From: Raillietiella orientalis
Taxonomy: Eukaryota
Reading direction: 5' to 3'
DNA: 64,000 bases
NCBI GenBank assembly: GCA_036172245.1
Contig: JAYWIR010000001.1
Span: 7,998,001 to 8,062,000 of the forward strand
The position numbers and the translations under genes were made by a program. Of this stretch, positions 5,918 to 60,500 are shown one piece after another. Position 1 is the first letter of the stretch; each line of letters begins with the position of its first letter. The notes under the pieces were generated by a model that worked only from the letters and a program-made list of their open reading frames with translations, did no database searches and was not told the DNA's origin.

Positions 5918-7655
5918 CCTTACTGGATCACGCCGAGACGTTTATTAAAGTAAACGAGTTGAAAGCAAAGTTCCCAACTGACGACAAAACCAGCAAGATG
6001 GGGAATCAACTGGCACGCAGGCCAAGATAACAAGAGTTGGGAACCGGGTGGGAGATCGAGCAGCAAAGAGAAAGTTAAATGCGGTGGGTTGGAGGAAGGG
6101 TCTTTGGATTCGCAACATGAGGCAATGGGATGAAACCAAAAACACCAAAGGAGTTGCAGAGAAAATGATAATGGGAAAGAATCAAAATAAATAAACAAAC
6201 AAATGAACAACATAAAACAAAATGGAGTGAATCAAGGGAGGGAAAGGGCCGGATTTACTGGGGTCCGCCGTTCCTGACTGTCCACCAACCGGCAGTGGAT
6301 GCTGGTAATCACCTACTTTTCCGCTTCTTCCAGGTGAAGAAACCTTGAAACCGTCCTCATTCTAGGCAGCAGCCACACAGTGGATCTCCCTTCTCTGCGC
6401 AGTCATCTCCATTACCTAGCAGACCTTCACAGTGGCGGGAATGCAACAGATTGTTGCGACTACCAAACCACCTAAAAGCCCGCTGCTCACGAGAAAACAC
6501 TGCAACATGTCCTTCGCAGAATCCTCCATAAGAGGGACGTCTAAAGCCAATCTCCACCACAGGTCACGGAAGACACCACAGTCAGGCAAAAGATGCGGGA
6601 ACGATTCGATCGTTTCGCATCTCTAGCAGTCGAGACAGCTCCTCGGAAACCATGTGTCGACGATAATTACGCTAAAGTCTCCAGTGTGAAAGTAGCAACA
6701 CGTCCTGTTTTCGTCTTAGGAAGAACACCGAGGTGTCCAAACAAGCAGGAAGGCCTACTAGTTCTCCGGGAGGCACACTCAACATTTCACTTTACCAGAG
6801 GAGTCATATAGCCCGGTTCGGAGAAATGGCGGCATGAACCAGTTCCTTTGTCCTCTACCCACCCAAGAGCTTGGTTTCTGTTGCAATTTCAAGTGCAGAG
6901 GAACTTCCACCTTGACAATAGTTAATTGTCATTGCTTGTCCCTAGGGCAAGCAACGCTGCCAAAAAGGATGTGCTGGCTAAGAGATTCCACTTTTTGTCC
7001 TGCTTCACCTCTTCCAGAAAGCGATTCAGCAGCAGTCGCAAGCCTAAAAGATCTTCCGGGAGTACTCCTACATTTTCAGCCCAGGACAAAACAGATTCCT
7101 GCTGCCAGGCATTGAAGTTCATCGGGAGGCAGGAGATCGCATGTTCGGCTTTCAGTAGCGAAGGAAGCTGCCTCAGTGAAAGGCCAAATCCTCTTCTAGT
7201 GTGGAGAAGGTGCGGCAGCAATCAGAGCAATCGTTCGCTCTTAGTGTAGCGCCGAAGGAGGCGTGCAGAAAGACAGCAAGGAGTACATCAGGGTCTGGAT
7301 GATAGAGCCAGCATACGGAATAGTTCCTGCAGTCAGATATTCTCGATGGCCAGGATGCGAAAGCCACCATCCTGGCGCAATGGCAGCAAAGCTTTCAGAC
7401 AAATGCTGAAACTAATGCTGCCTCACGGAACTTTGCGCAGCAAGCGTTTCCCTCGGTCCTTCACCGGATGAAGAGGAGAGCAAACAAAAAACAAAAGGCG
7501 CAGGAGGGGGCAACGAAGCTGTTTCAGATGGAGGCCTGTTTAGCAAAACTAAACTACCATCAAAGGATTAGCAGCACCCTCTGCCTTCTGAAGACAGTTC
7601 AATCATGCCTGTGAATCGCGGAAGAAGGCTAGCGGCATGCTAAGGTACTTGAAAT
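5918..7655 (-). mobile_element. Old, degenerate E/C-like LINE, 3' portion
   Basis: Degenerate 3' motif aataaacgtctcggcgtgatccagt (5921-5946, minus) and CTGCGT stem-loop (~6015). Peptides ISCLPMNFNAWQQESV and GYFKYLSMPL match the E ORF2 C-terminal half. Confidence 0.8.
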
Positions 7656-7659
7656 ACCC

Positions 7660-7866: not shown

Positions 7867-8158
7867 TTTGTTCCACGGCTGCGCCGGGACGTTTATTTCA
7901 AATCGCCTGGGAACTGTGTTCTCAGGCAAGGGGAACAGAAGATGGGGAGGAGTGTACCCGACACGCAGGCCGGGCACACTGAGAGTTCGGAACGGCAGGG
8001 AGGGAACAATAAATAAACAAATATCGTGGGAGGGTGAGGATAGGGGTCTGCAGTTCCATTCGTTCTTTGTCTCAGAACCGGCGGTGAATGCCTGCAATCT
8101 CTGTCCTCACTTCTGCGTCAAGGTGTGGCCACCCGGCAGCCAGTTGCAGATTGCAGGC
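7867..8158 (-). mobile_element. Short 3'-end fragment of a C-like LINE
   Basis: aataaacgtcccggcgcagccgtgg (minus, ~7873-7898) and stem-loop gtgcccggc-ctgcgt-gtcgggtac (~7953-7978). The layout is like the C 3'UTR at 46953-47200. Confidence 0.75.
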
Positions 8159-8406
8159 TGAACTGTCGGGGAATGATGTAGTGAATGCGGACGCGAAGTT
8201 GCTTGTTGCCATCCGAGCACGCCGGGGCGCTTAATATAAATTCTCTAATTTGTGGTACAAGGCCCCACTACGGCCAACAAAGCAGGACCTGCCAGGTCAC
8301 CGGTACTCAGACCGGCACGACTCCCCTCGTCAGCGGAAGGGTATGAAGGGAAAAACAAAAAGAAAAATAAAACAGAAAAACAAAAATTTGGAGGGCAGGG
8401 AAGGGA

Positions 8407-14008: not shown

Positions 14009-16370
14009 ACGCCAAGTTGATAGCAGGGCTATGGGCTTCGCGTCTGGTGTAGGTGGCAGAATCCGTAATTAGCCCGGAGCACACTTATGCTGTTCCCGGG
14101 CGAAGTATGGATGCTAACCTCTTCTTCGCAAGCACATGGGTGCACCTGCAGAGAAGAGAGAAGAAAGGGATAGGGAAAGTCGGCATCCCCACATTGGGGC
14201 CGCCAGCCGGGCTGGGAAGGGACCCCCGGGCGGGGAAGGGGGCCCTAGCGCTCGCAGTCGATCTCCACAAGGCGTTCGACTGTGTAGACCAGGACCTCCT
14301 TTTGGAGCTCCTCCTGGTCCTTCCCACCCTCCCTGACTTCCTACCTGCGCTCTTGCTGGCGGAATGCGATGATTACCGTCTCTTTCAGTGGACAGAAGGT
14401 GTATGGCGTGCCGGTGCGGCGGGGCATAAGGCAGGGAGATAGCCTCAGCCCACTGCTCTTCAGCACCTACTTTGAGTTGGTGCTGAGAGCGTACAGGGTG
14501 ACTTTGCAGCTTTGCCGAGCTCGTGCCCCGGCACGCCCGCCGTAGCAGCGTACGCCGACGATCTTCTGCTCTTGTTGCCAATGTCCACCCCGGCAAAGGC
14601 GGTCGGTGACTTCTTCGATCTGCTCAGCCGCGGCACCGGACTGCAGGTTAACAGGGCAAAGTCGTCGGTTGTGCCAATAGGTGCGGCGTTGGCAAGGCAG
14701 CAGGACTGGGTCCGTCTGGGGATACCCACGGCGAGGTGCTTCAAGTACCTTGGTGTGCCGTTAAGGGACTACTCCCCTGCGTAAGCGTGGTGCAGCTGCC
14801 TCCTAAAAGTCGAGACGGCGATCGGCCCGTTCCTGGAAGGCAAGTTTCACTTGCCGGAACGGGCCGCGGTTTGGAACGCCTTCGCAGCCTCCATCCTCCG
14901 CCCCTTTCTTTTTGTTTGCCCTTCCACCGTGGAATCGAAGAAGAGGACAAAGGACCTCCGCCGTATCGCCCTTTGGGGCAAGCGGAGACCCCTAGTCCCT
15001 CTGAAGGACTTGTGCGCTCCGCGTCGGGACGGCGGTCTTGGCCTCCTGACGCTGTAGCGCGTGGAGAAGCAGCTGCGGTGGCGAACCCTCACCATCGCAG
15101 CGAAGATGTGGATCACCCCTTGGTGCACTCCAGCCCGCCTCCTGGCCAGCCGTGTGTCCCGGTGCGATGGACTCGCTTCTTTTCTTCTGAGCCGTGGCCG
15201 GAAGATGCGAAGATGCGGCCTACTGCTCGGGCGCATGGCAACATTGGCCAAGGAGAACAGCTGGATGGTTTGCTGCCCCGCCAACTCCCCCGCCTGGCTG
15301 GAGTAGAACATCGGAACGTGGGCAGTGGTGAATCAGAAAAGCCACGAAACGTGGAATCGTCTCCGATGCAGCCCCTACGCCCGCTGCACTCTGAGGAATC
15401 TCCTGGAGAATCCAGCCAGAAGCACGTGGGCAGAGACAACCTGCCTGGCTACGGCGCTGCCCTTCCTGAGAAGGGCGCTACACAGCAGTCGGACGCCAAG
15501 GTGGCAAGTCTCCTGCTGCATCGAGGGACATGAGAAGAGAATCATCGCCTGGACCATGGGTCAACTGGCGGACGCCACGACCCCGAGGGCCCAGCCGCGA
15601 GGACTAAGAAGATGGGGCGAGCTGCTGGCCATCCCTATGGATGTGCTGAAGTGGCCCCACTTCTTCAGGAATCCAGGATCCTGCCCCTTAAGTGGAAAGA
15701 GTCGGCGTTGCTGTTGTTGCATTGGGGTTTGCCCTGCAACGCACGCCGTTCTCACTGGAGAAGAGGAGTTGTGGATCCTGCGTGTGTCAGGTGCGGAAAG
15801 CGGGAATCGCTCTCCCACCTGATTGTTTACCTTGCTGCCCTTCGCCCCCTTTGGGAACGGTTTGGGACGATCCTCGGTCTCCTTACGGGCAGTTTCCCTA
15901 GAGACGTTCTACGGCTTCTCTTCGCGAAGGACGCCCTGCAGCCAGCCGCAACCCTTGCAGCCTTGTGCTGCGTCCCAGGCATCGTGGCGGCATGGAGCGA
16001 CACCAACAAGGAAGGAGTGGGTCAACACGCGAGGGATGTCATCCCATATTCCCAACGCTTCTTGCGGAGAGCTGCCGGATGGCCCCAACTGGGGAATATA
16101 CGGATGGACATCGAGGGCTTCCTTCAACGGATGGGCCCTCCTCTCAGCGAACAGTGATTCTTTTCCCTGCCCCCCAACCTTATTTGTTTGTCTGCGTTTT
16201 TTGTTTTTATTTTTTTTTTTTCCCCATCCCCTTTCGCTGACGGGGAGTGCCACGCCGGGCTGCGTCCCGGGGTCCCGGTAGTTCCCGTGCATAAGGCCGT
16301 GAGCGGGGCCTGGTACCGCGATTGTAGAGTTTTTCATAAATAAACGCCCCGGGCGTACCCGGGTTGCAAC
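14009..16370 (+). mobile_element. Subfamily F copy 1, distal half (RT from AKLIAG to the 3' end), degenerate
   Basis: AKLIAGLWASRL, KAFD, QGDSLSP, YADD and CVRCGKRESLSHL; 3' end aataaacgccccgggcgtacccgggttgcaac at 16339-16370. Confidence 0.9.
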
Positions 16371-24415: not shown

Positions 24416-25988
24416 TCATTGCCCTACCCTCCATAAACTATTTTTTTATTTTCTTTTTACATCCGCGTCCCCATAGCATATGGAACATTTTAGGTGCTCA
24501 TCGTTTAAATCCCCGTGAGTACGGAGCCTAACCAAAAACCCGTTACCCTTCCCTCCAGTTTTTGATTTTTGTTTGTTTCCCCTCATTCCTCCCACGCTGC
24601 GAGCGGTTTGTTTACCAGGCCTGCGTGCCGGTAATTTTTCTATGTTCCCTGTCGTTCTGTTGATTGGGGACATTGTCCCTGACCAGGTTTTTGTTATTAA
24701 TAAACGCCCCGGCTTGACCGGGTGATAAATTTCAATCTCCGCCTGCTAACATGTGAGCCGGGAACGCGAAAGAACGCGATGAACGAGTTGTGCGCCGCCT
24801 TGCGTGCGCGCAGCTTTTTCGCAATTGAGCGGGGAATGGTCCACAGCATCGTCTGGTCGATGCTGTGGACCTCGACACCGACCTTTGTTCGCGGGTCGGC
24901 AAGCGTAGGAGGGTTGCGTCGACGTTGTCGGACCATTCCCGGCTAATTTTCGAGATGCGGCCTCGCGACAAAGGACCGCCATCCAGGGACTGGCGTCTCC
25001 CCGGGGACTGGACGCGCATCTCAGGTGCAAAGGTACACCTTCGCGAATACCTGAGAGGCGTCACGCTCCGGAATCTCCAGGACTGGGACCTTTTTAAGGA
25101 ATCGGTCCGCGAGTTATGCGAGCAGTTCTCCCTGGATCGCCTGCCCTTCGGATTTGGCGAGGGTGCTCGCAACCATCGAGCATATTTACAGGCCCGTCGT
25201 TACGAGAGAACCCCAAATGTCCGTTGCTTGGCCGAGTACCGCGCTGGGGCCGAACGCCAAGCCTGGCAATCCGGGTCGGCCAGCTTGCTGGACGACCAGG
25301 GCCGGGAATGTTCGTCCCCGGTGTCGGTACGGCATCTCGTGAGAAGATTTTATTCATGCCTTTACGCCAGGACGCCTCCGTACCAAGATGCCTCTCGGCG
25401 CTTGTTCCCGGATGGTGCCCTGGGGATAGGGGAAGAGGAGTCGGTAAGCCTCGACGAGCCTTTCACTGCCGGTGAAATTCTCGCCAGTATCAAAAGGCTC
25501 AATAGGCGTATGGCGTCAAAGAAGGATACCTTGCCCGCGGAGTTCTTTCAGTGCTTCGAGGAAGAGCTTGCCCTCCTGCTGCTCGTGTTGACAAGGCTGA
25601 TCCGAGACGAAGGCGATGTTCCCGCCTCGTAAAGGTCAGCCAGAGTGAGGCTCCTTCCGAAAGGGGGAGACCTCAGGAAATTGCATAACTGGCGTCCGAT
25701 CACCATCGTGAACACGGACGCCAAGTTGCTAGCAGGGTTATGGGCTTCGCGTTTAGGGCAGGTGGCAGAGTCCATAATTAGCCCGGAGTAGACCTATGCT
25801 GTTCCCGGGCGAAGTATGGACGCCAACCTCTTCTTCGCAAGCACGTGGATGCACCTGCAAAGGAGAGAAAAGAAAGGGAAAGGGAAAATCGGCAACCCCA
25901 CATTGGGGCCGCCATTGGGGCTGGGAATGGACACCCGGGCGGAGAGGGGGGCCGTAGCGCTCGCAGTCGATCTCCATAAGGCGTTCGA

Positions 25989-28342
25989 TTTTCACCCGGA
26001 TTTCGCCGGGGCGTTTATTGTAAAATAAACTTTTACAAAGACGTGCGGTGGCTGGACCATTGCTCCAGCCACGCACGAAAAAACACAGAGCCTGCCGGGT
26101 CACCGGTTCGCAGACCGGTACGGTCCACCACGGCAGCAGGGGGAAGGGGGAAAAACAAAAAAAACAAAACAAAAAAGAAAAGAAAAATTGGGAGGGTAAG
26201 GGAAGGGATCACAGTTGCTGGTGGGGCCGTTGCATCCTTTGCAGGATGCCGGCAAGCTCCTTCTGTATTCCTGGATCCAGGTGGGGCCATCGGGACGCCC
26301 TCCTCAGGAACTGAGAGGCTGGCTGGATGGCACCCTGGTCGCGTTGTCCTTTCGTAGCCTTGCTTCAAGCGGTGACGATCCCGCGTAGGCAGCACAAAGC
26401 TGCTAACGAGGCCGCTGGCCGAAGGGCGTCGGCAACGAAGAGGGCTTTCAGTGCGTCCCTGGGGTTGCCGCAGGGGATTCCGATGGCCGCGGCAAAGCGA
26501 AACCAAAGGGGCCGAAGGGCAACACAATCCACTAGCAGGTGGGGGAGGGAATCCCGTTCCCCACACCTGACGCAATTGGGGTCCACCGTTCCCCAGGTCC
26601 AGTGGTGTCGGCGGGCGTTGCAGAAGAGTCCCCAGTGCTGCAACAGGAGAGCCGACTCCTGCCATTTTAAGGGTAGGGCGGAAGTGTTCATGAGCACCGG
26701 GGGCCACTTCAGATGTTCAATGGGAACATCGAGCAGCGCGCCCCAGCGCAGAAGTCCATTGGGAGGCGCACTCGGGGTCGCAGCGTCTGTTAACTGGCCC
26801 GTCTTCCACTCTCCTATCTTCTTCTCCTTTCCGGAGATTGTTACTGTTACCACCCACTTCGCCGCAACATCGCTGTCCAGATCTTCCATCAGGGAGGGCA
26901 GCGCAGCAGCGAGGGGGGTTCTTCCTGCCCACGCTCTCTTCTTTGTATCCTCCAGGATCTCGCGGAGCGTGCAACTTCTGTAACCCCCAAACAGGAACCT
27001 TCGTTCCTGTTGGGAGCGTTGCATGCCGAACTGTCCCACGTTCGAACGGTTTCCTGCAACCAGGCACTACCGTTAAACGGGCGACAGGTGAGCAATCCTG
27101 GGTTTTTCCGATACAACGCAGCCACCCTCCGTAGCTGGAGTCCGCATCGGTTGACGCGGCGACGGAGTGCAAGAAACGACGTCAGTCCCGTCTTGCCGGT
27201 GGCTTGCTGGAGAAGGAGACGTGCAGGGACGCACCAACAGGTGCACCACAACTCTGGAACGAGTGCCGACAAGCGGAACTGGAGCTGAAGCTCCAGCCGC
27301 TCCAGCGTCAGGAGGCCCAGACCACCATCCCGACGAGGAGCGCACAAGTCCTTTAAGCGGACTCGGGCCCTCCCGTTGCCCCAAAGGGCGATACGGAGGA
27401 GGTCCTTCGTCCGCTTTTTGATCCTCTCTGTGGGAGGGCGAACAAAAAGCAGGGAGCGGAGGAGAGGAGCCGCGAACGTGTTCCAAACCGCGGCCCGTTC
27501 AGGCAGGAAAAACCTGCCGCCTCGGAACGGGCCGATAGCCGTCTCTACTTTTTGGAGGCAGCCGGACCACGCTTCCGCAGGGGAGTAGTCCCCCAACGGC
27601 ACACCAAGGTACTTGAAGTACCTCACCGTGGGGATCCCCAAACGGACCCAGTCCTGCTGCCCTGCCCACGCCGCACCAACTGGCATCACGGACGACTTCT
27701 CCCTGTTCACCGTAAGTCCGGTTCCCCGATGCAGCAGGTCGAAGAACTCCTCGACCGCCGCAGCCGGGGTGGACATAGGGAGCAGCAGCAGAAGGTCGTC
27801 CCCGTATGCTGAAACGGCCGGAGTACCGGCACAGTCGGGCGGCAGGTGCGCCAGAGTTCCCCTGTACGCTCTCAGTACCAACTAAAAGTAGGTACTGAAG
27901 AGCAAGGGGCTCAGGCTGTCTCCCTGCCGGATCCCACGCCGCACCGGCACGCCGTGCACGGTCTGCCCGCTGGAAGTAACGTTGATGAGCGCGTCGCGCC
28001 AGCGGGAGCGCAGATAGGCCACAAATGAGGCCAGGAAGCCCAAGCGTTCCAGAAGCTCCAGAAGGAGATTCTGGTCGACGCAATCGAATGCTTTTCGCAA
28101 GTCGATTGCGACCGCAAGGGCTCCCTCCCCCACCCGACCATCCAACCCCTTGCCGGCGCATGCACCGGAATTCCGGCTGCGCACCAAGCTCCTTTCATGT
28201 TGGAGCTCTAGCCAGGTGGAAGCGTGGAACAGGTTCGCCTCCATGCTTCGCCCGGGAACAGCATATGTCTGTTCCGGGCTGATGAAGATGTTGGCAACCC
28301 GACCCAGACGCTCTGCCCAAACCTTAGCCAGCAACTTGGCGT
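25989..28342 (-). mobile_element. Subfamily B copy 1, distal part; antisense in KAFD of F2 and cut by A2 at DAKL
   Basis: 3' end aataaacgccccggcgaaatccgggtgaaa (minus, 25990-26019); RT motifs AKVWAERL, KAFD, QGDSLSP and YGDD; CVRCGERDSLPHL. Confidence 0.9.
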
Positions 28343-28370
28343 GCGGACGTGTTTTTGTAGCGCTCCTCCG
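28343..28370 (+). promoter_or_regulatory. Conserved 5'-terminal motif (G/A)GACGTG(T/C)TTT..CGCTC, putative internal promoter (example copy)
   Basis: Found within ~6 nt of the 5' end in 9 elements. Function is inferred. Confidence 0.6.
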
Positions 28371-28430
28371 CGCCTGGTGTAAAGCGATTTATTTGGATTG
28401 TGATTGTGTGTGAAGCATCTGCGGTGTCGA

Positions 28431-30452
28431 ATGGCAGAAATGCCTGAGGACACCGCGATGGATATAGGAGGGGGAGAGGCTTGCTCCTCTCCCCAACCCA
28501 CGGAGGTGGGGGCAATCGCCCATACGGAGGCGACGGCAGCCGCACCCCTGAAAAAGGGGGCAACCGCCGCCTCGAAAGCGAGGGCAAAGGCCCCCTTGAA
28601 AAAGGGGGCAAAAGCCCCGCTGGAACAGGGTGCAACCGCCCCCTTGAAAAAGGGGACAACCGCAACCCTGGAAAAGGGCGCAACCGCCTCCTTGAAAAAG
28701 GGGGCACCTGCACCCTCGAATGCGTCTTCGGCATCGCCGAAGACCTGGAGTTCAGTGGCTGCAGCCCCATCTCCTGCAGCCCTCGCCGAGCAGAAAGCCT
28801 ACCTGGAGCAGGGATACAAGCCGTCCCTGATATACAAGATAGGCAATCTGTTTGTCGGGAACACCGCTCGCAACTTCGAAAGGGAGTTGCAGCGGTTGAA
28901 CGTAAAAGAGGAAGACCTGGAAGGTCTTTCCGTGTTGAGTTGTGGTCAGCGGGTGGAGCTGACTTGCAGAAATGCAAGCCTTGCTCAACACCTCCTGAAT
29001 ACGCCAATCACACTGGAAGGCCGAAAGGTTTTCTTGGTGACGGAGGATCGCTCCGTGGTGACGCACCTCACGGGAGTCACCCTCCGCATGTCGAAAGCCG
29101 ACGTGCAGGAGGAACTCGGAAAATACGGAACGGTTCACGCGCTATGGCCCAAGCCCAACGTCTTCCAGAGTTACGGAAGACTGTTTAGTGGCATGGCTGG
29201 TGCGCGTGTAACCGTCCACGAAAACGGTGGGCTACCCCACAAACTAGACGTCGGCAACGAGACCGTCGACGTCTGGTACGTGGGCAAGCCCAAGTACTGT
29301 GGACACTGTGATGCCACAGGGCACCTGAAAAAGCGGTGCCCTCACATCCAGTGTTTCCACTGTGGAGAGAAGGGCCACCTCCGCAAAGTGTGCCCGAAGC
29401 GCGAACCTCCGGCTCCCGCTGCCTTGAAAAATTCCAAAGGGAAACGCGCGGAGGCTACGGAAAACCCTGCGAAGGCACCCGTGAGGCGGAACCCACAGCC
29501 GGAGCCCGAGACCGTGCAGCAAACGCCGGTCGTGGAATCTACCGACGACGCTGAAAAGAGAGAAGGCTGGCAGAAGGCGAAGCCTAAAGCCAAGAAAATT
29601 AAGAAAACCGAAGGGTCGACAGCGGAACCCGCGACGTCTCCTTTAAATAGGAGACAAAGCCGCGCGTTGATCCGCGAATGTTCGGTCGCTTTGGAGCGTG
29701 TGGAGGTACCCGAGACCGCCACCGGGGGCGATATCCCCCGCGTCGACGCCGACGATAACGCGATTGCGGAAGGCGAACCCTCTGTGCAAACAGAGGGGGA
29801 ACCGCGCGACGCGCTCGCCGCGATCGACGAGGCCGCCTTCCAGCAGGCGGCGGAAGAGCTCGCGGCCGAACTCGCCGACCGTGAGAACGGCGCGCGAAAG
29901 GCCTTGCGAAGGCCGGCCGCGACCAGGGCACCTCCGACAGGTGACCACGACCCGGATGCCGGAAGTGCGTCCTCTTCCACGGAGGCGCCTCCGAAGAAGA
30001 CTGGACGGAAGTCCAAGAATCCCAAGAGGCGCATCCCGACGAAGAGCGAGGGGGACGTACCGGCAGCCGAGGGGGAAGCCGGCAGCGTGGGAACGGAGGA
30101 AGGAATTTTCCCACCCTCCGCCACCGAGCAGCCGGCCACCCCCATGGAGGAGGGGGAGCAGGCAGGGCATTGCCTCCCCCTTCCACCGGTGGAGCCTGCG
30201 GAGAAGATGGTCATGGAAGAGGGGGAGCAGTCAGCTGAGAACCGCTCCCACCTGCCGTCCAACGCAGTCAAGGAATCGGCCCCCAAGGAAGAGGGGAAGC
30301 AGGTGCGTGAAGCATGCTCCCTTCAACCGTTGCGGTCCGCCGAGGAATCGGCCCCCATGGAGGTGGGAGAACCGCTGGGCGGTGCCCCCATGCCTCCATC
30401 CGTCCCGCCCGACCAGGTGGCGGGAGCCCCATTGCCACTTTCCCGGGAATAA
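28431..30452 (+). CDS. ORF1 of A2 (673 aa)
   Basis: Differs from A1 ORF1 at two residues in the ORF track; two CCHC knuckles. Confidence 0.9.
   Translation: MAEMPEDTAMDIGGGEACSSPQPTEVGAIAHTEATAAAPLKKGATAASKARAKAPLKKGAKAPLEQGATAPLKKGTTATLEKGATASLKKGAPAPSNASSASPKTWSSVAAAPSPAALAEQKAYLEQGYKPSLIYKIGNLFVGNTARNFERELQRLNVKEEDLEGLSVLSCGQRVELTCRNASLAQHLLNTPITLEGRKVFLVTEDRSVVTHLTGVTLRMSKADVQEELGKYGTVHALWPKPNVFQSYGRLFSGMAGARVTVHENGGLPHKLDVGNETVDVWYVGKPKYCGHCDATGHLKKRCPHIQCFHCGEKGHLRKVCPKREPPAPAALKNSKGKRAEATENPAKAPVRRNPQPEPETVQQTPVVESTDDAEKREGWQKAKPKAKKIKKTEGSTAEPATSPLNRRQSRALIRECSVALERVEVPETATGGDIPRVDADDNAIAEGEPSVQTEGEPRDALAAIDEAAFQQAAEELAAELADRENGARKALRRPAATRAPPTGDHDPDAGSASSSTEAPPKKTGRKSKNPKRRIPTKSEGDVPAAEGEAGSVGTEEGIFPPSATEQPATPMEEGEQAGHCLPLPPVEPAEKMVMEEGEQSAENRSHLPSNAVKESAPKEEGKQVREACSLQPLRSAEESAPMEVGEPLGGAPMPPSVPPDQVAGAPLPLSRE
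28545..28710 (+). repeat. Six coding repeats (L-K/E-K/Q-G-A/T-x-A, mostly 27-bp period) in the A ORF1 N-terminus
   Basis: ttgaaaaagggggcaaccgcc-like units; also at ~13640-13805 (minus) and ~44855-45025. Confidence 0.85.
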
Positions 30453-33400
30453 CACCTGGGATCGCCTGTCGCCGTCGATTGCGTGTGGCATGCTGGAACG
30501 TCCACGGGCTGCGCGACGACAGCAACAGACGGGACACGGCAGCCACCCTGCGTGACTTCGACCTGGCACTCCTGCAGGAGATCCACGTGATCACCGGGGA
30601 GAACGCCCAGGAGATCGAGAGGATCGCAGAAGGGCGGCTGGTGTGGCAATGCGGCACCCGATACACCTGCGGCGTCGCGTTTTTTATGAAACCGGCGGTC
30701 GACGCTGCCGTGAAGGGCGTGCGCTTCGACGAAGCCGGTCGTGTCGGGCAGCTGATTCTCAGATGGTCCGACACGATCGACCTCGTCGTAACAAACGTAT
30801 ACGCCCCGAGCGGTTATAACAGGTAACGGGAACGCGCGGCGTTCCTGGAAAGCGTGAAGCACGACTGGCTGGTGGAAGCGAACGTGCGCGTGGCTCACCT
30901 GATAGCAGGAGACTTTAATCTCCGCCTGCTATCAGGTGAGCCACACGCACAGGAACGGACGGCTAACGTGTTGTGCGCCGCCATGCGCACGCGCAACTTG
31001 TTAGGGGATCTTTCAAAAATGGTCAGCAGCATCGACCACGTCTTCCTGGACGTCGACCTGTGCTGGCGGGTCGGTAAACGGGGGAAAGTTGCGTCGGAAC
31101 TGTCTGACCATTCCAGATTGATACTCGAGGTGTGCCCGCGCGACAAGGGACCCACGTCCAGGGCGTGGCGGTTGCCTGGTGACTGGACGCGCCTCTCAGG
31201 TGCAAAGGAACACCTTCGCGAATTCCTGAGAGGCGTCACCCTCCCCGGTCTCAAAGATTGGGACCTCTTCAAGGCCTCGGTCCGCGAATTCTGCGAGGAG
31301 TTCCCCCTGCACCGCCTGCCCCCCGGATTTAAGTAGGGGGCTCGGAACCATAGGGCCTATTTACAGGCCCGCCGGTACGAGAGGACGCACAATGTACGTC
31401 GCCTGGCAGAGTACCGAGCCGGGGCCGAACGTCAAGCCTGGCAATCCGGATCGGCCAGCTTGCTGGACGACCAGGGCCGGGAGCACTTAGCTCCGGCTAG
31501 AATACGGCACATCGTACGGCGTTATTATTCCTGCCTTTACGCCAGGGCGCCCCCGGACCAAGATGCCTCTGGGCGCTCACTTCCGAGCGGTGCCCCGGCA
31601 ATATGGGAGGAGGAGAAGGAAAGTCTCGACGAGCCTTTTATCACCGGCGATGTTCTCGCCGGTATCCAAAGGCTCAAGAGGCGGAAAGAACCAGGGGAGG
31701 ACGGCCTGCCTGCGGAGTTTTTTCAATGCTTCGCGGCAGAGTTGGCACCCCTAGTGCTTGAGTTGACAAGGCTGATCCGAGATGAAGGCGATGTACCCGC
31801 CTCTTTTCGGTCAGCCAGAGTGAGGCTCCTTCCGAAAGGAGGAGACCTCAGGAAACTCAGCAACTGGCGTCCGATCACAATTGTGAAGACGGACGACAAG
31901 TTGATCGCCGGACTGTGGGCTTCGCGTCTGGGGCAGGTGGCCAATTCCATAATTAGCCCGGAGTAGACTTACGCTGTTTCCGGGCGAAGTATGTAGGCCA
32001 CCTCTTCTTCGCGAGCACATGGTTTCATGTGCAGAGTAGTGAAGGATTGGCAGCCCCGCTTTGGGGGCGTCAGCCGGGCAGGGACAGGACTCCCAGGTGG
32101 GGAAGGGAGCCTTAGCGATGGCAGTCGATCTGCATAAAGCGTTTCACTGCGTGGACCAGGATCTCCTGCTGGAGCTCCTGGGACGCATGGGCTTCCCTCC
32201 CTCCCTACTGACCTACCTGCGCTCTTGCTGGCGCAGCGCGCTGATCAATATCTCTTTCAGAGGTCAAATGGCGTACAGCGTGCCGGTACGGCGGGGCATA
32301 CGGCAGGGCGACAGCCTCAGTCCCCTGCTTTTTAGCACCTACTTTGAGTTGGTGCTGAGAGCGTATAGGGTGACGTTGGCCCCCTTGCCGAACTCGTGCC
32401 CCGGCAGGCCCGCCGTAGCAGCGTACGCCGACGATCTTCTGCTTTTGTTGCCGATGTCCATCCCGGCAAAGGCATTCGAGGATTTCTTCGACCTGCTTAA
32501 CCGCGGAACCGGACTGCAGGTTAACAAGGCGAAGTCGTCGGTGGTACCAGACGGTGCGACGTGAGCTTGGCAGCAGGACTGGGTCCGTTTGGGGATCCCC
32601 TCGGCAAGGTGCTTGAAGTACCTCTGTGTGCCGTTGGGGGATTACTCCCCTTCGGATGCGTGGTCCGGCTGCCTCCAAAAAGTGGAAACGGCGATCGGCC
32701 CGTTCTTGGAAGACAAGTTCCTGCTTCCGGAACGGGCCGCGGTGTGGAACTCCTTTGCGGTTCCCATCCTCCGCCCCCTGCTTTTTGTTTGCCCCGTCCC
32801 CAGGGACATGAAGAAAAGGACGAAGGACCTCCTGAGGTTTTCCCTTTGGGGAAGAGGGAGGCCCCGAGTCCATTAGAAGGACTTGTGTGCTCCACGTTGG
32901 GATGGCGGTCTGAGCCTCTTGACGCTGGAGAGAGTAGAAATCCAGCTGCGATGGCGCACCCTGGCCATCGCAGCGAAGTTATGCAGCAACCCATGGTGCG
33001 TTGAGGCCCGACTCCTTGCCAGCCGTGTATCCGGAACGGAAGGTCTGGCGTCTCATCTTCTGTGCCGCCACTCGAAGATCAAGAGATGCGGACTCCTCCT
33101 GGGACGCAAGGCAACCCTGGCAAACGAAAACGGCTGGATGGAATGCAGCCCCGCCAACTCCTCCGCATGGTTGGAGGAGACAGCTGGCACGTGGGCGAAG
33201 ATAAACCAGAAGAACGGAGAGATGTGGAACTGCCTGCGACGCGGCGCCTATTCCCGCTACACTCTGCGGATGATACTCCAGTGTCCCGCGAGAAGCACGT
33301 GTGCAGAGACAACCCCCCTAGCTACGGCGATGCCCTTCCTGAGGAGGGCGCTCTCCAGGAGCCGCAAGCCTAGGTGGCAAGTCTCCTGCCGCATCGCAGG

Positions 33401-34021
33401 CAAGGAGAAGTTGATCAGCGGCTGGTCCACGGGCGAACTGGCGGACGCCAGTACCCATAGTGTACAGGCGAGAGGACTGCAGAGATGGGGCGAGCTACTC
33501 GGCATCCAGCCGGATGACCTGAAGTGGCCCCCGGTATTAATTGGATCTAGGATCCTCCCCCTGAAGTGGCAGGATTCGGCGCTTCTGTTGTTGCATTGGG
33601 GTCTACCCTGCAACGCACGCCGCCACCACTGGACCAGGGGTCGAGTAGATCCTACCTGCATCAGGTGTGGGGAACGGGAAACTCTCCACCACCTCCATGT
33701 TGATTGTGCTGCCTCCGGCCCTCGTGGGAACATCTTCGTGCCTCCCTACGGATCCAGGAAGGCTGCAAGCCCAGAGACGTTTTTCGGCTTCTGTTCGTGC
33801 ATGATGCCCTGCGTCCAGCCGCTACCCTGACTGCACTTTGCCGCGTACGCGGGATTGTGACGTGCTGGAGCAACGTCAGAAGACCGAGGCACGACAGGGA
33901 TACCGCCGTACTTGCAGTCCGCTACCTGCGGATTGCGACCAGATGGCCCCACCTGGGAAATATACGCACGGACCTCGAGCGCATCCTGCCAAGGATGGAC
34001 CCTCCTCCCAGTGGTCAGTGA
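30452..34021 (+). pseudogene. ORF2 APE-RT of A2, disrupted
   Basis: All APE/RT motifs are in order, with stops at 30826, 31336, 31966, 32876 and frameshifts. Confidence 0.92.
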
Positions 34022-34228
34022 TCCCTCCCCAACCCTCCCAAATCTTTTTGTTTTAATGTTTTATTTTTCTTTTTGTTTTTTCCCCCACCCCCTTCCGCTG
34101 CCGAGGAGAGTCGCGCCGGTCTGCGTACCGGCGACCCGGCAGGTCCAGTTGAGTTGGCCGCAGTGGGGCCTCGTACCGCGAATGAAAGAGAATTTTTAAT
34201 AAACGCCCCGGCGTGACCGGGTGGCAAC

Positions 34229-37200
34229 TAGCAACTTGGCGTCCGTATTCACGATCGTGATCGGACGCCAGTTCTTTAAATCCCTAAGGTCTCCCCCTTT
34301 CGGAAGGAGCCTCACTCTGGCTGACCGAAACGAGGCGGGAACATCACCTTCGTCTCGGATCAGCCTGATCAACTTAAGCAGCAGGGGTGCCAGCTCTTCC
34401 GCGAAGCTCTGAAAGAACTCCGCGGGCAAGCCGTCTTCCCCTGGAGCTTTACGCCTTTTGAGCCTTTTGATACGGGCGATAATTTCGCCGGTGGTAAAAG
34501 GCTCGTCGAGGCTTTCCATCTCCTCCTCCCCTATTGCCGGGGCGCCATCCGGAAGCAAGCGCCGAGAGGCGTTTCGATCCGGGGGCTCCCTGGCGTAAAG
34601 GGAGGAATAAAAACTCCGCAAGAGATGCCGTACCGACGCCGGGGAAGAACATTCCCGGCCCTGGTCGTCCAGCAAGCTGTCCGACCCGGATTGCCAGGCT
34701 TGGCGTTCGGCCCCGGCGCGGTACTCGGCCAGGCGACGGACATTAGGGGTTCTCTCGTACCTACGAGCCTGTAAATAGGCCCGATGGTTGCGAGCAGCCT
34801 CGCCGAATCCGGGGGGCAGGCGATCCAGGGGGAACTGCTCACAGAACTCGCGGACCGATTCCTTAAAAAGGTCCCAGTCCTGGAGATTCCGGAGCGTGAC
34901 ACCTCTCAGGTATTCGCGAAGGTATTCCTTCGCACCTGAGAGTCGCGTCCAGTCCCCCGGCAGACGCCAATCCCTGGATGGCGGTCCCTTGTCACGAGGC
35001 CGCATCTCGAAAATTAACCGCGAATGGTCCGACAACGTCGACGCAACCCTCCCCCGTTTGCCGACCCGTGAACACAGGTCAGCGTCGAGGAAGACGTGGT
35101 CGATGCTGCGGACCATTCCCCTCTCACCCGCGAACAAGTTGCGCGCACGCATGGCGGCGCACAACTCGTTCATCGCGTTCTCTTGTGTTTCTGGCTCACC
35201 TGATAGCAGACGGAGATTGGAATCTCCCGCTATCAGGTGAGCCTTCCGCACGTTCGTGTCCGCCAGCCAGTCGCGCTTCAGGGAATCCAGCAGCCTGGTA
35301 CGGTCGCTGTATCCCTGTTTACCACTGGGGGCGTACACATTCGTGACGATCAATTCGATCGAGTCGGACCAGCTGAGAATCAGCTGACCGACCCGACCGT
35401 CGTTATCGAAGCGCACGCCCTTCACGGCCGCGTCGATGGACGGCTTCACGAAGAACGCGACTCCGCAGGTGTTACGGAGGCCGCACCGCCAATACAGCCG
35501 ACCCCCCGCGATCGTTTCGATCTCCTGGGCGTCTGCCGCGGTGATCACGTGGATCTCCTGCAGCAGGGCCAGGTCGAGCTCACGCAGGGTGTCGGCCGTA
35601 TCTCGCCTGTTACCGTCGTCGCGCAGTCCGTTGACGTTCCAACAGGCGGCGCGAATCCGACGGCGACTGGCGAGCCCAGGTGTTATTCCTGGGAAGATGG
35701 CGATGCGGCGTCCGCCACCTGCTGGGGCGGGACGCTAGGTGGAGGAGGAGGGTCAGGCGCTGCGTGCACCTGGTCCCCCTCCTCCATGGGTAACGGCGCG
35801 TCGAGGGGGTCACCCTTGAGTGGGGTGGCGCCTACCTGTTGGCCCTCCTCCATGGGGGCGGGCTGTTCAGGCTCGGCGACTGCAGGGAGGACTTCGCCCC
35901 CCTGCTCACCCTCCTCCATGGGGGTGGCCGGCTCGAAGGCTTCCGCGCGTGGGAGTTCCCCCTCCGGGATTCCCACGCTACCGCTACCTTCCTGCTTCTC
36001 CTCCTCGCTGGTGGAGGGGAGGCGCCTCCTGGGTTTCTGGGACTTGCGTCCCGACTTCCTGGGGGTGCCTCCGAGGAGGAGGATGCACTTCCGGCCCCCA
36101 GGTCCGACTCACCTGTGGGGGCCTTTTTCGCGGGAGCCGGCCTTCGCACGGCCTTGCGTGAGGGGTTCTCACGCTCCGCCAGCGTGGCCGCGAGCTCCTC
36201 CGCCGCCTTTGCGAACGCGGCGTCCGCAGTGTCGACCGGCGCGTCGCGCGGCTCACCCTCTGTGTAAACAGAGGGTTTGCCGTCGCGAACCTCGGGCGCG
36301 GCGGAAACGGCGAGGGAATTCTCGTCGCCCCGGGTGGCAATCTCGGGAACGGCTATGCGCTCCAGTGCTACCGTACACTCCCGCATGGTCTTAGAGCGCG
36401 GCCCAGGTTTTTTCGCCTTGCCGGCTGTCTTTTTTACCGCTTTTGCGGGTTCCGCGGGGGGCACCGTTTTCTCCTTCCTGGCCTTGACCAGCTGCCAGCC
36501 GTCTTGGACTCCCGCGTCTTCGGAGGGTTTTTCTTCCGACGCCTGTGTGGGAGGAACAGGGGCTAGCGGCTGCTGCCGGCCAGTATCTCTTTTTGGTCTT
36601 TCGACCAGTTTACTGCGTTTTGCCTGTGCTTTTTTTGCAGCAGGCGGCACCGGAGTGGGGTGTTTAGGGCATGCGCGGCGTACGTGGCCCTTCTCCCCGC
36701 ATAAGTGGCACACAATGTTTGCGCACCGCTTGCGCAAGTGTCCTACTGCATTGCAGTAGCCACAAAAGCGGGGTTTCCCCACGTACCAGAGGTCTACGAC
36801 TTCGCCATTGACCTCTAGTTTGTGGGGAAGCCCACTGTCGTTCACCGTCACGCGCGCGGCGGCCTGCCCTCCGAAAAGGCTATCGTAGCCATCGAAGATT
36901 GTGGCCTTTGGCCAAAGCGCGTGAACATCCCCGTACTTTCTTAACTGATCACCAACCGCAGACCGCGTCATGCGGCTGGTGATCCCTGTCAGATGGACCA
37001 CTACGGAGCGGTCCATCGTGACTGGTAGGATCTTGCGTCCGTTCACGTTCAGCGGGGTGGTTATCAAGCTTTGCGCCAAGGTGATGTCCTTGCAGACAAC
37101 CTCAACGCGCTGACCCCCGCTTAGCACGGATAGACCGTCAAGGTCCTTTTCTAACACGTTGGCGTTCTGCAGCGCTTTCGAAAAAGCGCGTGCAGTTCGC

Positions 37201-42286: not shown

Positions 42287-44652
42287 TTTCACCCGGATTT
42301 CGCCGGGGCGTTTATTATAAAACAAACATTTACAAAGACGTGCAGTGGCTGGACCATTGCTCCAGCCACGCACGAAGAAACACAGAGCCTGCCGGGTCAC
42401 CGGTTCGCAGACCGTTACGGTCCACCACGGCAGCAGGGGGAAGGGGGAAAAACAAAAAAAAAAAAAACAAAACAAAACAAAAAAGAAAAAGAAAAGTTGG
42501 GAGGGTAAGGGAAGGGATCACAGTTGCTGGTGGGGCCGTTGCATCCTTTGCAGGATGCCGGCAAGCTCCTTCTGTATTCCTGGATCCAGGTGGGGCCATC
42601 GGGACGCCCTCCTCAGGAACTGGGAGGCTGGCTGGATGGCACCCTGGTCGCGTTGTCCTCCCGTAGCCTTGCTCCAAGCGGTGACGATCCCGCGTAGGCA
42701 GCACAAAGCTGCTAACGAGGCCGCTGGCCGAAGGGCGTCGGCAACGAAGAGGGCTTTCAGTGCGTCCCTGGGGTTGCGGCAGGGGATTCCGATGGCCGCG
42801 GCAAAGCGAAACCAAAGGGGCCGAAGGGCAACACAATCCACTAGCAGGTGGGGGAGGGACTCCCGTTCCCCACACCTGACGCAATTGGGGTCCACCGCTC
42901 CCCAGGTCCAGTGGTGTCGGCGGGCGTTGCAGGGGAGTCCCCAGTGCTGCAACAGGAGAGCCGACTCCTGCCATTTTAAGAAGAGGGCGGAAGTGTTCAT
43001 GAGCACCGGGGGCCACTTCAGATGTTCAATGGGAACATAGAGCAGCGCGCCCCAGCGCAGAAGTCCATTGGGAGGCGTACTCGGGGTCGCAGCGTCTGTT
43101 AACTGGCCCGTCTTCCACTCTCCTATCTTCTTCTCCTTTCCGGAGATTGTTACTGTAACCACCCACTTCGCCGCAACATCGCTGTCCAGATCTTCCATCA
43201 GGGAGGGCAGCGCAGCAGCGAGGGGGGTTCTTCCTGCCCACGCTCTCTTCTTTGGATCCTCCAGGATCTCGCGGAGCGTGCAACTTCTGTAACCCCCAAA
43301 CAGGAACCTTCGTTCCTGTTGGGAGCGTTGCATGCCGAACTGTCCCCACGTTCGAACGGTTTCCTGCAACCAGGCACTACCGTTCAACGGGCGACAGGTG
43401 AGCAATCCTGGGTTTTTCCGATACAGCGCAGCCATCCTCCGTAGCTGGAGTCAGCATCGGTTGACGCGGCGACGGAGTGCAAGAAACGACGTGAGTCCCG
43501 TCTTGCCGGTGGCTTGCTGGAGAAGGAGACGTGCAGGGACGCACCAACAGGTGCACCACAGCTCTGGAACGAGTGCCGACAAGCGGAACTGGAGCTGAAG
43601 CTCCAGCCGCTTCAGCGTCAGGAGGCCCAGACCACCATCCCGACGAGGAGCGCACAAGTCCTTTAAGCGGACTCGGGCCCTCCCGTTGCCCCAAAGGGCG
43701 ATACGGAGAAGGTCCTTCGTCCGCTTTTTGATCCTCTCTGTGGGGGGGCAAACAAAAAGCAGGGAGCGGAGGAGAGGAGCCGCGAACGTGTTCCAAACCG
43801 CGGCCCGTTCAGGCAGGAAAAACCTGCCGCCTCGGAACGGGCCGATAGCCGTCTCTACTTTTTGGAGGCAGCCGGACCACGCTTCCGCAGGGGAGTAGTC
43901 CCCCAACGGCACACCAAGGTACTTGAAGTACCTCACCGTGGGGATCCCCAAACGGACCCAGTCCTGCTGCCCTGCCCACGCCGCACCAACTGGCATCACG
44001 GACGACTTCGCCCTGTTCACCGTCAGTCCTGTTCCCCGACTCAGCAGGTCGAAGAACTCCTCGACCGCCGAAGCCGGGGTGGACATAGGGAGCAGCAGCA
44101 GAAGATCGTCCGCGTATGCCGAAACCGCAGGCGTACCGGGAAAATCGCACGGCAGGTGCGCCATAGTCTCCCTGTACGCTCTCAGCACCAATTCGAAATA
44201 GGCGCTGAAGAGCAGGGAGCTCAGGCTGTCTCCCTGCCGTATGCCGCGTCGCACCGGTACGCCGTACACGGTGGATCCACTAAAAAAAACATTAATAAGC
44301 GCGTCGCGCCAGCTGGAGCGCAGGTAGGCCAGCAAAGAGGCCGGGAAGCCCAAGCGTTCCAGAAGCTCCAAAAGGAGATTCTGGTCGACGCAATCGAATG
44401 CTTTATGCAAATGGACTGCGACCGCGAGAACTCCTCTCCCCTCCCGACCATACCGTCCCCCACCGACGGACGCACCGGAATTCCGGTTGCTTATTATGCT
44501 CCTTCCTTGTTGGAGCTCTAACCATGTGGAAGCGTGGAACAGGTTCGCCTCCATGCTCCGCCCGGGAACAGCATAAGTCTGTTCCGGGCTGATGAAGATG
44601 TTGGCAACCCGTCCCAGACGCTCTGCCCACATCTTGGCTATCAACTTGGCGT
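42287..44652 (-). mobile_element. Subfamily B copy 2, distal part; antisense in KAFD of K and cut by A3 at DAKL
   Basis: Same 3' end as B1 (42287-42317); RT with YADD; ORF 42518..43435 with CVRCGERESLPHLLVDC. Confidence 0.9.
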
Positions 44653-44740
44653 GCGGACGTGTTTTTTCCGCGCTCCTCTGCGCCTGTTGTAAAGCGTTCT
44701 TTTTCGGTAGTGGTTGTGTGTGGAGCATCTGCGGTGTCCA

Positions 44741-46762: not shown

Positions 46763-46952
46763 CACCTGGGCTCGCCTGTCGCCGTCGATTACGCGTGGCC
46801 TGCTGGAACGTGAACGGGCTGCGCGACGACGGCAACAGACGGGACACGGCCGCCACCCTGCGTGACTTCGACCTGGCACTCCTGCAGGAGATCCACGTGA
46901 TCACCGCGGAGAACGCCCAGGAGATCCAAAGGATCGCAGGGGAACGGTTGAT

Positions 46953-48033: not shown

Positions 48034-48274
48034 GGGGGACGGTTGATTGTCACCCGGGTGCGCCGGGGCGTTTATTATAAACTATCCGGGAACAGGGTTC
48101 CCGGACAAAGGGGAAAACAAGAGACGAAGGGGGTGGGATCCCCGACACGCAGGTCGGTATGCCGAAAGTCCGGAACGGTAGGGAAGGGACCACAAACACA
48201 CTACTATATAAAAAAATAAAAGAAAAATATGGAGGGCAGGGGACAGGGGTCTTTGGTAAATCCGTTCCTTCCTT

Positions 48275-53756: not shown

Positions 53757-55115
53757 GGGACGGTTGATGTGGCAATGCGGCACCCGATACACCTGCGGCG
53801 TCGCGTTTTTTATGAAGCCGGCAGTCGACGCAGCCGTGAAGGGCGTGCGCTTCGACGAGACCGGTCGTGTCGGCCAGCTGATTCTCAGGTGGTCCGACAC
53901 GATCGACCTCGTCGTAACAAATGTGTACGCTCCGAGCGGTCCTACCAGGTTCTAGGAACGTAAGGCGTTCCTGGAAACCCTGAAGCGCGACTAACTGGTA
54001 GAAGCGAACGTGCGCGTGGCTCACCTGATAGCGGGAGACTTTAATCTCCGTCTGCTATCAGGTGAGCCACACGCACAGGAACGGACGGCTAACCAGTTGT
54101 GCGCCGCCATGCGCACGCGCAACTTGTTAGGGGATCTTTCGGAAATGGTCAGCAGCATCGACCACGTCTTCCTGGATGTCGACCTGTGTTCACAGGTCGG
54201 CAAACGGGGGAAAGTTGCGTCGGAGCTATCTGATCATTTCCGGTTGATATTCGAGGTGTGCCCGCGCGACAAGGGCCCCCCATCCAGGGCGTGGCGTCTG
54301 CCTGGGGACTGGACGCGACTCTCAGGTGCGAAGGAACACCTTCGCGAATTCCTGAGAGGCGTCACCCTCCGCAATCTCGCTTGAAACCCGGGTGAGCCGG
54401 GACGTTTATTCTCACGAATAAACCTATATAATCTGTGACTGGACCAGTAGTCCAGCCACGCCCTGGAAAGATATGCTTGCCGGGCTACCGGTGCGCAGAC
54501 CGGCGCGGTCGACCTCGGCAGCAGAGGGGAGGGGGAACGAAACAAAAAGAAAACAAAAAAATAAACAAAATCAGGGAGGGAGCGGGAAGGGATCACAGTC
54601 TGCTGTGAGGGTCCGTCATCCTCTGGAGGATGCCGGCAAGCTGTTTCTGCGTGTGTGGTTCCAGATGGGGCCATCGCGTCGCCATCCTGAGGAAACGGGC
54701 GGCATACACGTTGGCATCCCTGTCGCTGGATCCTCCCGTCGCTTTGCTCCATGCCACGACGATCCCGCGTAGGCAGCACAGGGCTGCAAGCGAGGCCGCT
54801 GGAGGCAGGGCGTCACGGACGAAGAGGGGGCGCAAAGCGTCTCTGGGGTTGCCTCCGGGGATCCCCAGGGCTGCGGCAAAGCGTTCCCACAAGGGACGGA
54901 GGGCAACACAATCCACTAACAGGTGGGGGAGGTATTCCCTCTCCCCGCACTCGACACAATTAGGGTTGACACCCCCCCGCGTCCAGTGGTGTCGGCGGGC
55001 GTTGCAAGGAAGCCCCCAATGCAACACCAGCAGTGCCGACGGTCAGACGTGTTCTCTGCGCGCTCCTGACTCGCTCGACTTTATTGGTGTAGTGCGGTGC
55101 ATCAGTGGTCGGGGG

Positions 55116-60281: not shown

Positions 60282-60500
60282 AGGACGTCTCCAGCGGAAC
60301 GTGATCCCTTCCCCAACCCCTCCCTGCTTTTGTAAATAGTGTTTTCTTTTTGCTTTTTTCTATTTGTCCCTTCCCCCTCCGCTGCCGAGTCGACCTTGGG
60401 AGCCTGCGTGCTGCCCACTCGGCGAGTTCAGAAGAACATGTTCTGAACACTGTAGCGGCGATAGCCCTACACTTGCTTGTTTATTTTTTTTTATTAAAGA

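Follow-up and report, generated by a model that had tools for sequence, protein, structure and literature searches.

The window analysed here is the whole stretch of 64,000 nucleotides (nt) at positions 7,998,001 to 8,062,000 of contig JAYWIR010000001.1 from Raillietiella orientalis (GCA_036172245.1). From about 4.5 kb on it consists of packed retrotransposons of the non-LTR (non-long-terminal-repeat) kind, also called LINEs (long interspersed elements), of ~60% G+C; its first 4-8 kb are lower, at ~41-50%. All 12 element 3′ ends in this nest carry, in the 3′ untranslated region (UTR), a hairpin with the six-nucleotide loop CTGCG(T/A/C), mutated to CTGAGT in one decayed copy (A2). An RNA structure of this hairpin, with selection acting on it, is well supported by the comparisons that follow.

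The elements form one divergent family. Pfam finds Exo_endo_phos (APE endonuclease) and RVT_1 in three second open reading frames (ORF2s), with a weak zf-RVT match at the C-terminus; an N-terminal APE endonuclease (EN) joined to a reverse transcriptase (RT) domain is the arrangement of L1/Tx1 ORF2. Copy C has the sole uninterrupted ORF2 (1203 aa, 48278-51886, minus strand), and a tblastn search with it returns about twenty ORF2 fragments on both strands, many interrupted by other copies, at 30-66% amino-acid identity once its own duplicate is set aside. In a collection of 5.8 billion proteins the best relatives of ORF2 reach at most 28% identity and almost none has a name, while in a protein atlas they fall in unnamed RVT_1/Exo_endo_phos clusters without assigned taxa. 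The ORF1 proteins contain two adjacent CCHC knuckles in all eight translations examined; Pfam reports zf-CCHC in A and A2, and no RNA-recognition motif (RRM) family passes E 0.01. Type I ORF1p, with an RRM and a CCHC knuckle, is described for plant L1s and for Tx1-like elements of fish and amphibians (PMC5203782); as that account defines it, the present ORF1p is alike in its CCHC knuckles but has no RRM at that threshold. Because the nearest solved enzyme to ORF2 is human L1 ORF2p (E 1e-43) and the two-CCHC ORF1p is like type I, the family is provisionally called L1/Tx1-like.

The hairpin lies ~100 nt past the ORF2 stop and ~100 nt short of the element end, 65-91 nt upstream of a terminal AATAAA block in 12/12 copies (Table 1). 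In copy A the family's usual ORF2 stop corresponds to the TGA at 34019-34021, as aligning A with B, D, F and G indicates. All 12 hairpins are downstream of an ORF2 C-terminus and on its sense strand, as expected of the 3′ UTR stem-loop of a stringent-type LINE. The nine that an earlier, sequence-only reading had listed (A to G and two relics, r1 and r2) are all present where it placed them and on the strands it gave; A2, H and C2 are additional, and its claim of a near-invariant loop in every subfamily extends to them. Since A/A2, B/H and C/C2 are duplicates, the 12 copies stand for nine lineages. That reading also saw an outer stem in several copies. This stem (CTGCCG with CGGCAG) is found in A, B, H, G and D and partially in A2 and F, with 66.7% of cells paired overall; it is absent from C, E, r1 and r2, which have a longer inner stem in its place.

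A covariance model built from the 12 copies and run over the window with filters off recovers just those 12, at 39-62 bits, the next match scoring 15.6 bits (E 0.37). The search for partners among short interspersed elements (SINEs), which the sequence-only reading had proposed, therefore returned LINE tails alone, with no orphan hairpin copy or SINE-like carrier in the 64 kb. A further CTGCGT at 4190 on the minus strand has no stem and was not counted as a copy. Rfam gives no match at gathering score over the whole window; below threshold, the A tail matches IRES_mnt alone, at 13.4 bits against a gathering score of 100.

Table 1. Hairpins, tail features, element boundaries and duplications in the window (positions are those of the window; bits are covariance-model scores)
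Feature	Position	Strand	Details
Copy A, whole hairpin	34098..34142	+	outer stem 34098-34103 with 34137-34142; inner stem 34114-34120 with 34127-34133
Copy A, hexaloop	34121-34126	+	CTGCGT; best score, 62.1 bits
Copy A2	8296..8321	-	loop CTGAGT 8305-8310; one G.U pair; 54.7 bits; decayed duplicate of A (82% in hairpin part)
Copy B	26101..26120	-	7 bp; loop CTGCGA 26108-26113; 61.2 bits
Copy H	42398..42417	-	B-like loop 42405-42410; segmental duplicate of B (87.6%); uncompensated stem C>A breaks a pair
Copy G	54484..54506	-	loop CTGCGC 54493-54498; one G.U pair; 51.6 bits
Copy F	16252..16273	+	closing pair G-C; loop CTGCGT 16260-16265; 50.9 bits
Copy D	60397..60417	+	3 bp, bulged G, 3 bp; loop 60404-60409; enclosed by 7-9 bp outer stem; 47.4 bits
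Copy E	24612..24634	+	3 bp, bulged A, 5 bp; loop 24621-24626; 41.1 bits
Copy C	48142..48157	-	5 bp, A-U second pair; loop 48147-48152; 54.7 bits; element with uninterrupted ORF2
Copy C2	47047..47062	-	loop 47052; tandem duplicate of C 3′ end (96.8%); uncompensated stem G>T breaks a pair
Relic r2	7951..7980	-	12-bp uninterrupted stem, two G.U pairs; loop 7963-7968
Relic r1	6005..6031	-	stem 5 bp + 3-4 bp, U-A and U.G pairs; loop 6015-6020; 39.3 bits
Pyrimidine tract, copy A	34022..34097	+	T-rich then C-rich, between ORF2 stop and hairpin
Terminal block, copy A	34198..34229	+	AATAAA, second hairpin with CCCGG/CCGGG stem, 7-nt tail
Other 11 terminal blocks	5933-, 7884-, 8222-, 16339+, 24699+, 26006-, 42303-, 46968-, 48063-, 54397-, 60501+		motif search; strand after each position
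Element A	28343-34229	+	13-bp target-site duplication 28330-28342 / 34230-34242; sits in ORF2 of B
Element D	55041-60530	+	12-bp target-site duplication 55029-55040 / 60531-60542
Element E	18826-24728	+	9-bp target-site duplication 18817-18825 / 24729-24737
Segmental duplication, inverted	9772-15074 with 27283-32563		92.7%
Segmental duplication	25596-30629 with 41896-46939		87.6%
Tandem duplication	46939-48032 with 48034-49127		96.8%

Conservation along the 3′ tail is uneven. As mean pairwise identity over the nine lineages, the hexaloop stands at 0.93, the highest value of any UTR block, compared with 0.52 for the pyrimidine tract, 0.40 for the outer 5′ arm with the internal loop, 0.58 and 0.66 for the two inner stem arms, 0.29 for the stretch between hairpin and AATAAA, 0.79 for AATAAA with the terminal hairpin, and 0.34 for the last few bases. 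Loop positions 1-5 (CUGCG) are invariant save in the decayed A2, while the sixth varies between U, A (B and H) and C (G). The sequence-only reading held that the UTRs otherwise diverge, which is true of the middle of the tail and not of the near-invariant block of about 30 nt at its end. The pyrimidine tract consists in all copies of a T-rich run followed by a C-rich run (CCCC-TT-CCCC type), and the length of the T-run varies. Between the two conserved hairpins a middle hairpin is predicted in most lineages (34143-34197, plus strand, in A), with sequences unrelated between groups: B, H and G share one of up to 14 bp, C and r2 share another of 12 bp, and D has two. It seems that here the architecture is conserved where the sequence is not. 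A loop-loop pairing, suggested by a CGCAG in the next hairpin of copy A, was treated as chance, being absent by eye from the middle stretches of F and B.

Taken by itself, the hexamer occurs little more often than expected (50 times against 36.7, with two of 100 shuffles reaching 50), so the signal is in the context rather than in the word. Five or more contiguous flanking pairs surround just 1.0% of arbitrary 6-nt loops in the window. Covariation was measured on a plain MAFFT alignment that had not been fitted to any structure. In the inner 5-bp stem, 56 of 60 cells are paired (93.3%) across the 12 copies, and the four unpaired cells correspond to the H and C2 mutations and the D and E bulges. 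Changes on both sides occur at all five pairs, giving 11 double-changed cells compared with 2.6 in shuffles, and on four of five measures none of 500 shuffles attains the observed value. The closing pair is C-G in six copies, U-A in five and G-C in one; the second pair is G-C, A-U or G-U, the third G-C or A-U, the fourth C-G or U-A, and the fifth C-G, G-C or U-G.

These shuffles ignore phylogeny, whereas controls in which the 3′ partner is slid by 1-3 columns keep it; the latter yield 25-48% paired cells and at most three double-changed ones. When arms are permuted among lineages, with one sequence for each of the nine, the observed pairing is reached in 25 of 200000 permutations. RNAalifold, given the unfitted MAFFT alignment of whole 3′ tails, picks the stem of the hexaloop hairpin. 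A fixed loop on a stem kept by compensatory change is the pattern of a stringent-type stem-loop, and the covariation, whose absence would have told against the sequence-only reading, is supported by shuffled, slid and arm-swapped controls.

The duplicates serve as an internal control. Self-comparison attributes the A/A2, B/H and C/C2 pairs to segmental or tandem duplication inside the nest. Three inner-stem changes separate the members of these pairs, one per pair: G-C to G.U between A and A2, C-G to A.G between B and H, and G-C to U.C between C and C2. None of the three is compensated; one gives a G.U pair and two break the pair. A2 is also the sole copy mutated within loop positions 1-5. Changes between lineages, each of which must have transposed, are in contrast compensated. 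Such a difference is predicted if selection maintains the RNA only in lineages that transpose, and inserted copies then decay neutrally.

In pieces of 30 nt the hairpin is the minimum-energy fold for 10 of the 12 copies, the exceptions being H and C2, both of which carry a fresh stem mutation, and in copy A it is the minimum-energy fold of the 53-nt as well as the 30-nt piece. Relic r2 alone stands out from shuffled sequence (z -4.07, with 0 of 200 shuffles folding as well). G.U pairs occur on the sense strand in G, A2, B, r1 and r2, which fits a sense-strand RNA.

A second conserved signal, missed by the sequence-only reading, is found at the very 3′ end. Every element has there an AATAAA, a hairpin whose CCCGG/CCGGG stem is constant while its loop of 4-6 nt varies, and then a last 4-7 nt. 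A search of the window for this terminal motif finds 12 ends where 1.0 is expected, and none of 100 shuffles reaches 12. The terminal hairpin is predicted in the intact copies; in F its stem is one pair longer, through an extra G and an extra C. It reverses the design of the hexaloop hairpin, having a fixed stem and a variable loop where the other has a fixed loop and a variable stem.

Target-site duplications define the ends of elements A, D and E. All three stop 4-7 nt past the terminal hairpin and 24-26 nt past AATAAA, with no poly(A) and no run of more than three A, which is the precise, non-poly(A) end of a stringent-type LINE. A distance of 24-26 nt is the usual one between a polyadenylation signal and its cleavage site. 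We infer that cleavage of the transcripts falls close to the element's last base and that this base, not a tail, is where reverse transcription starts. A start of such precision means that the element's own machinery must specifically recognise the 3′ region. A histone-type 3′ end, an idea raised by the terminal hairpin near the end, was set aside in view of the conserved AATAAA 24-26 nt before the end; the downstream element that histone-type processing needs would, moreover, not be carried in the RNA. Two of the three target-site duplications start with AGCA. A similar start, with …GACGTG followed by a T-rich run, is seen in A, D, E and the element whose 5′ end is near 16386. Element D is inserted between G and the ORF2 fragment 60527-62452, which are two parts of one element.

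The L2 clade offers a precedent. In zebrafish ZfL2, an ORF2 segment between EN and RT binds the tail stem-loop, with the loop read specifically and the stems swappable if pairing is kept, according to retrotransposition and binding assays (PMC4176376), and the tail hairpin of eel UnaL2 is reported to be needed for mobilisation (PMC1636434). As far as these accounts extend, the LINE 3′ hairpin here is like those of UnaL2, ZfL2-1 and ZfL2-2, and a fixed loop with covarying stems is what the L2 mechanism predicts; each ZfL2 LINE is, however, presented as having its own loop, whereas here one loop is common to all subfamilies. The present family also belongs to another clade than these LINEs, its closest solved enzyme being L1 ORF2p, and no partner SINE was seen in the window. 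Hairpins of the UnaL2/ZfL2 type lie within the terminal ~60 nt and are followed by short 3′ repeats. The hairpin here is of a different type, since it lies ~100 nt from the end, a second hairpin occupies the terminus and no 3′ repeats are seen.

L1-clade elements are the textbook relaxed LINEs, which recognise little beyond the poly(A) tail. In a monocot L1 lineage (the maize LINE1-1_ZM group), a conserved 3′ hairpin with compensatory stem changes and conserved loop bases is nonetheless described, in a tail shared with SINEs (Ohshima, PMC3472496). The Chlamydomonas pair L1-1_CR/SINEX-3_CR is described likewise, and the ancestral L1 is argued to have been stringent (PMC3472496). According to the same source, the monocot hairpin has a UCU loop and a CGAG 3′ flank and sits in the final ~45-50 nt, and the majority of plant L1s have a poly(A) end (PMC3472496). 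Measured against that description, the present hairpin is not of the LINE1-1_ZM type: it has a CUGCG(U/A/C) loop, is internal to the UTR, and is accompanied by a terminal hairpin fused to AATAAA and by no poly(A). The monocot and Chlamydomonas cases are, in the same account, backed by SINE partners, whereas in this window the present hairpin is seen in LINE tails alone.

Two further systems offer partial parallels. SART1 of the silkworm, an element of the R1 clade, reportedly has a stem-loop inside its 3′ UTR and a precise start of reverse transcription. It differs from the present family in its clade, in its specificity for a telomeric-repeat target and in ending in poly(A). In R2, a structured 3′ UTR RNA is described as bound by the element's single protein upstream of RT, giving precise, poly(A)-independent target-primed reverse transcription (PMC4176376; PMC11194090). 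R2 departs from the present family in its restriction-like endonuclease, its single ORF and the far greater size of its folded RNA, and R2 proteins match ORF2 far more weakly than L1 does (E 1e-16 against 1e-43).

The kind of signal is thus already known, and the present hairpin is a further, L1-like case of it. No relevant literature description of the CUGCGU-loop motif or of poly(A)-less L1-like elements was found, and Rfam is without a match; the family may already be catalogued in repeat libraries such as Repbase or Dfam. In a scan of metagenome contigs for the loop and terminal-motif pattern, at least 120 loci were found, five of which pass a loose test, none with both hairpins; two of the five resemble bacterial terminators, and the hits are taken as chance.

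The reading we put first is that the hairpin is a protein-recognition element of a stringent LINE, with ORF2p reading the loop for template choice. The analysis gives it an even chance of being right, and it is placed ahead of the others because a fixed loop, paired but otherwise free stems, and the setting in a poly(A)-less LINE 3′ UTR fit the stringent mode. The cis-acting RNA element would be a fixed 5′-CUGCG(U/A/C)-3′ loop on a stem of at least 5 bp, free in sequence if paired. By recognising the bases of the loop together with the stem's helical form, ORF2p would choose its own RNA for target-primed reverse transcription. The second, sequence-invariant hairpin, just past the conserved AAUAAA at the extreme 3′ end, would act with the first, and the two together would place the enzyme such that copying starts at a fixed base, giving precise ends without poly(A). 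ORF2p as the partner, the joint action of the hairpins and the cross-use of RNA between subfamilies are all inferred. In ORF2, conservation of the EN-RT linker roughly equals that of the RT domain (0.49-0.73 per 30-aa window), which is compatible with reading by ORF2p and is not a test of it. The sequence-only reading had proposed RT recognition and cross-mobilisation from the hairpin alone; its observation is confirmed and extended, and its interpretation is partly supported, with ORF1p or a host factor as candidate partners in place of ORF2p.

Several points count against recognition of the loop by ORF2p. The proposal is drawn from sequence, and the covariation behind it comes chiefly from lineages C, D and r1 and from the closing pair, among just nine lineages all within one 64-kb window. 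A CCGG core recurs in many stems, so that full pairing survives in 21 of 72 arm swaps across lineages. Thermodynamic support for the hairpin is weak: it is the minimum-energy fold in only six of 12 pieces of 53 nt, the z-scores of these pieces are between -0.8 and -1.9 for eight of 12, with C, C2 and r1 above zero, and the 145-nt A tail lacks it in its minimum-energy fold (z -0.31). The strand argument is modest because, r2 apart, the two strands give hairpins of similar energy. No SINE with a hexaloop tail occurs in the window. Finally, the hairpin is not at the 3′ terminus, where the terminal block is better placed as the entry site of the enzyme and might be the true or only recognition element.

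A broader form of the proposal takes the internal shared-loop hairpin and the invariant hairpin fused to AAUAAA as one two-part, poly(A)-independent 3′ signal. Given a shared loop, any subfamily's enzyme could copy the RNA of any other, including that of defective or truncated copies. The subfamilies would then cross-mobilise as a communal population and represent a living example of the stringent ancestral L1 state. This is a tentative extension, and on balance a doubtful one.

An unlikely alternative is that the hairpin serves ORF1p, for binding or packaging: the two CCHC knuckles of ORF1p would grip exposed G residues of the loop and so nucleate a ribonucleoprotein on the RNA of the element itself. 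The comparison is with retroviral packaging signals, whose G-containing loops are gripped by nucleocapsid knuckles. The knuckles are present in every ORF1 translation examined, with Pfam zf-CCHC in A and A2, the loop holds two invariant G residues spaced G-N-G, and a fixed loop with free stems suits any sequence-specific loop reader, not only ORF2p. Nothing in the sequence tells ORF1p from ORF2p as the partner. LINE ORF1 proteins, however, are general RNA chaperones and coat proteins, and given cis-preference a packaging signal is superfluous. Within the account cited, those readers of LINE tail hairpins that experiments have mapped are ORF2 proteins (PMC4176376).

Less credible still is a site for a host factor acting in 3′-end formation, stability or export of the RNA, such as an upstream enhancer of cleavage and polyadenylation at the AAUAAA some 70-90 nt downstream, with no part in template choice. 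Its constant placement, 65-91 nt upstream of the conserved AATAAA in 12/12 copies, agrees with it, as do the long U- and C-rich tract that precedes the hairpin and an element end 24-26 nt past AATAAA, where cleavage is expected. Known upstream polyadenylation enhancers, however, are U-rich linear motifs and are not known to be fixed-loop hairpins, and insertions without poly(A) mean that the element's own enzyme must recognise the 3′ region somewhere in any case.

Very improbable is a functionless inherited GC-rich palindrome around the CCGG core, with covariation as a by-product of relatedness and wobble tolerance: the core is common to A, B, G, F and r2 and partly to E, and the 21 of 72 cross-lineage arm combinations, the unremarkable folding z-scores and a shuffle control that does not keep phylogeny are in its favour, but the phylogeny-keeping slid controls stay at 25-48% paired and at most three double-changed cells against 93.3% and 11, all five pairs change on both sides, with C-G, U-A and G-C at the closing pair, the loop stands at 0.93 beside neighbouring UTR at 0.29-0.40 in lineages of 30-66% protein identity, and changes are uncompensated in duplicates after insertion and compensated between lineages.

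The hairpin offers a compact RNA-protein pair that can be tested with ORF2p and ORF1p, and the shared loop makes cross-mobilisation directly testable. Reports of a specific 3′ hairpin cover only a few L1-clade lineages, which underpin the idea of a stringent ancestral L1 (PMC3472496). An L1-like, poly(A)-less and precise-ended family whose very divergent subfamilies keep one loop is a clear addition to them. The hairpin and terminal block together also form a sharp annotation signature for the 3′ ends of the family and for any SINEs that borrow them.

In a comparison with sequencing runs, one DNA run shares words with the window (0.07) and no RNA run is listed. When contigs of that DNA run are matched to 33700-34300 at 80% likeness, only short pieces fit. 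They differ in the hairpin by G>A at 34123 (two contigs) and a 1-nt deletion at 34131 (one contig), and are uninformative on covariation, 3′ ends and expression.

The duplications bear on the history of the nest. Elements of A type are found at the same position of a B-type ORF2 three times, and site-specific insertion was considered and rejected, as this is one event: the three junctions need no site specificity because the copies spread by segmental duplication (92.7% and 87.6%). Identity jumps abruptly at 9740-9770 and at 15074, which suggests that the copies may be mosaic or that elements have recombined.

Positions 1-8500 of the window, at 41-50% G+C, hold decayed material, namely relics r1 and r2, a fragment at 4549-4985 and the 3′ part of A2, and there is no convincing ORF in 1-4500. 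The relics show C>T changes in their terminal motifs. This fits older copies at the left end that are probably decaying toward the lower-GC background of the host.

Examples of ORF1 are found at 28404-30452 (+), 51844-54054 (-), 54609-56309 (+) and 19089-20825 (+). Each has a conserved middle domain followed by the two CCHC knuckles, spaced four residues apart, and a long, low-complexity C-terminal tail rich in lysine, alanine and proline that is very different among subfamilies. Many long stop-free frames overlap the real ORFs in other frames or on the other strand, for example at 11796-12680 (-), 12029-13009 (+), 29342-30322 (-) and 49005-49838 (-), as expected for coding sequence of 60% G+C. 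In a 736-aa frame upstream of the C ORF2, the N-terminal ~100 aa are the antisense of another element's endonuclease fragment at 53734-54378.

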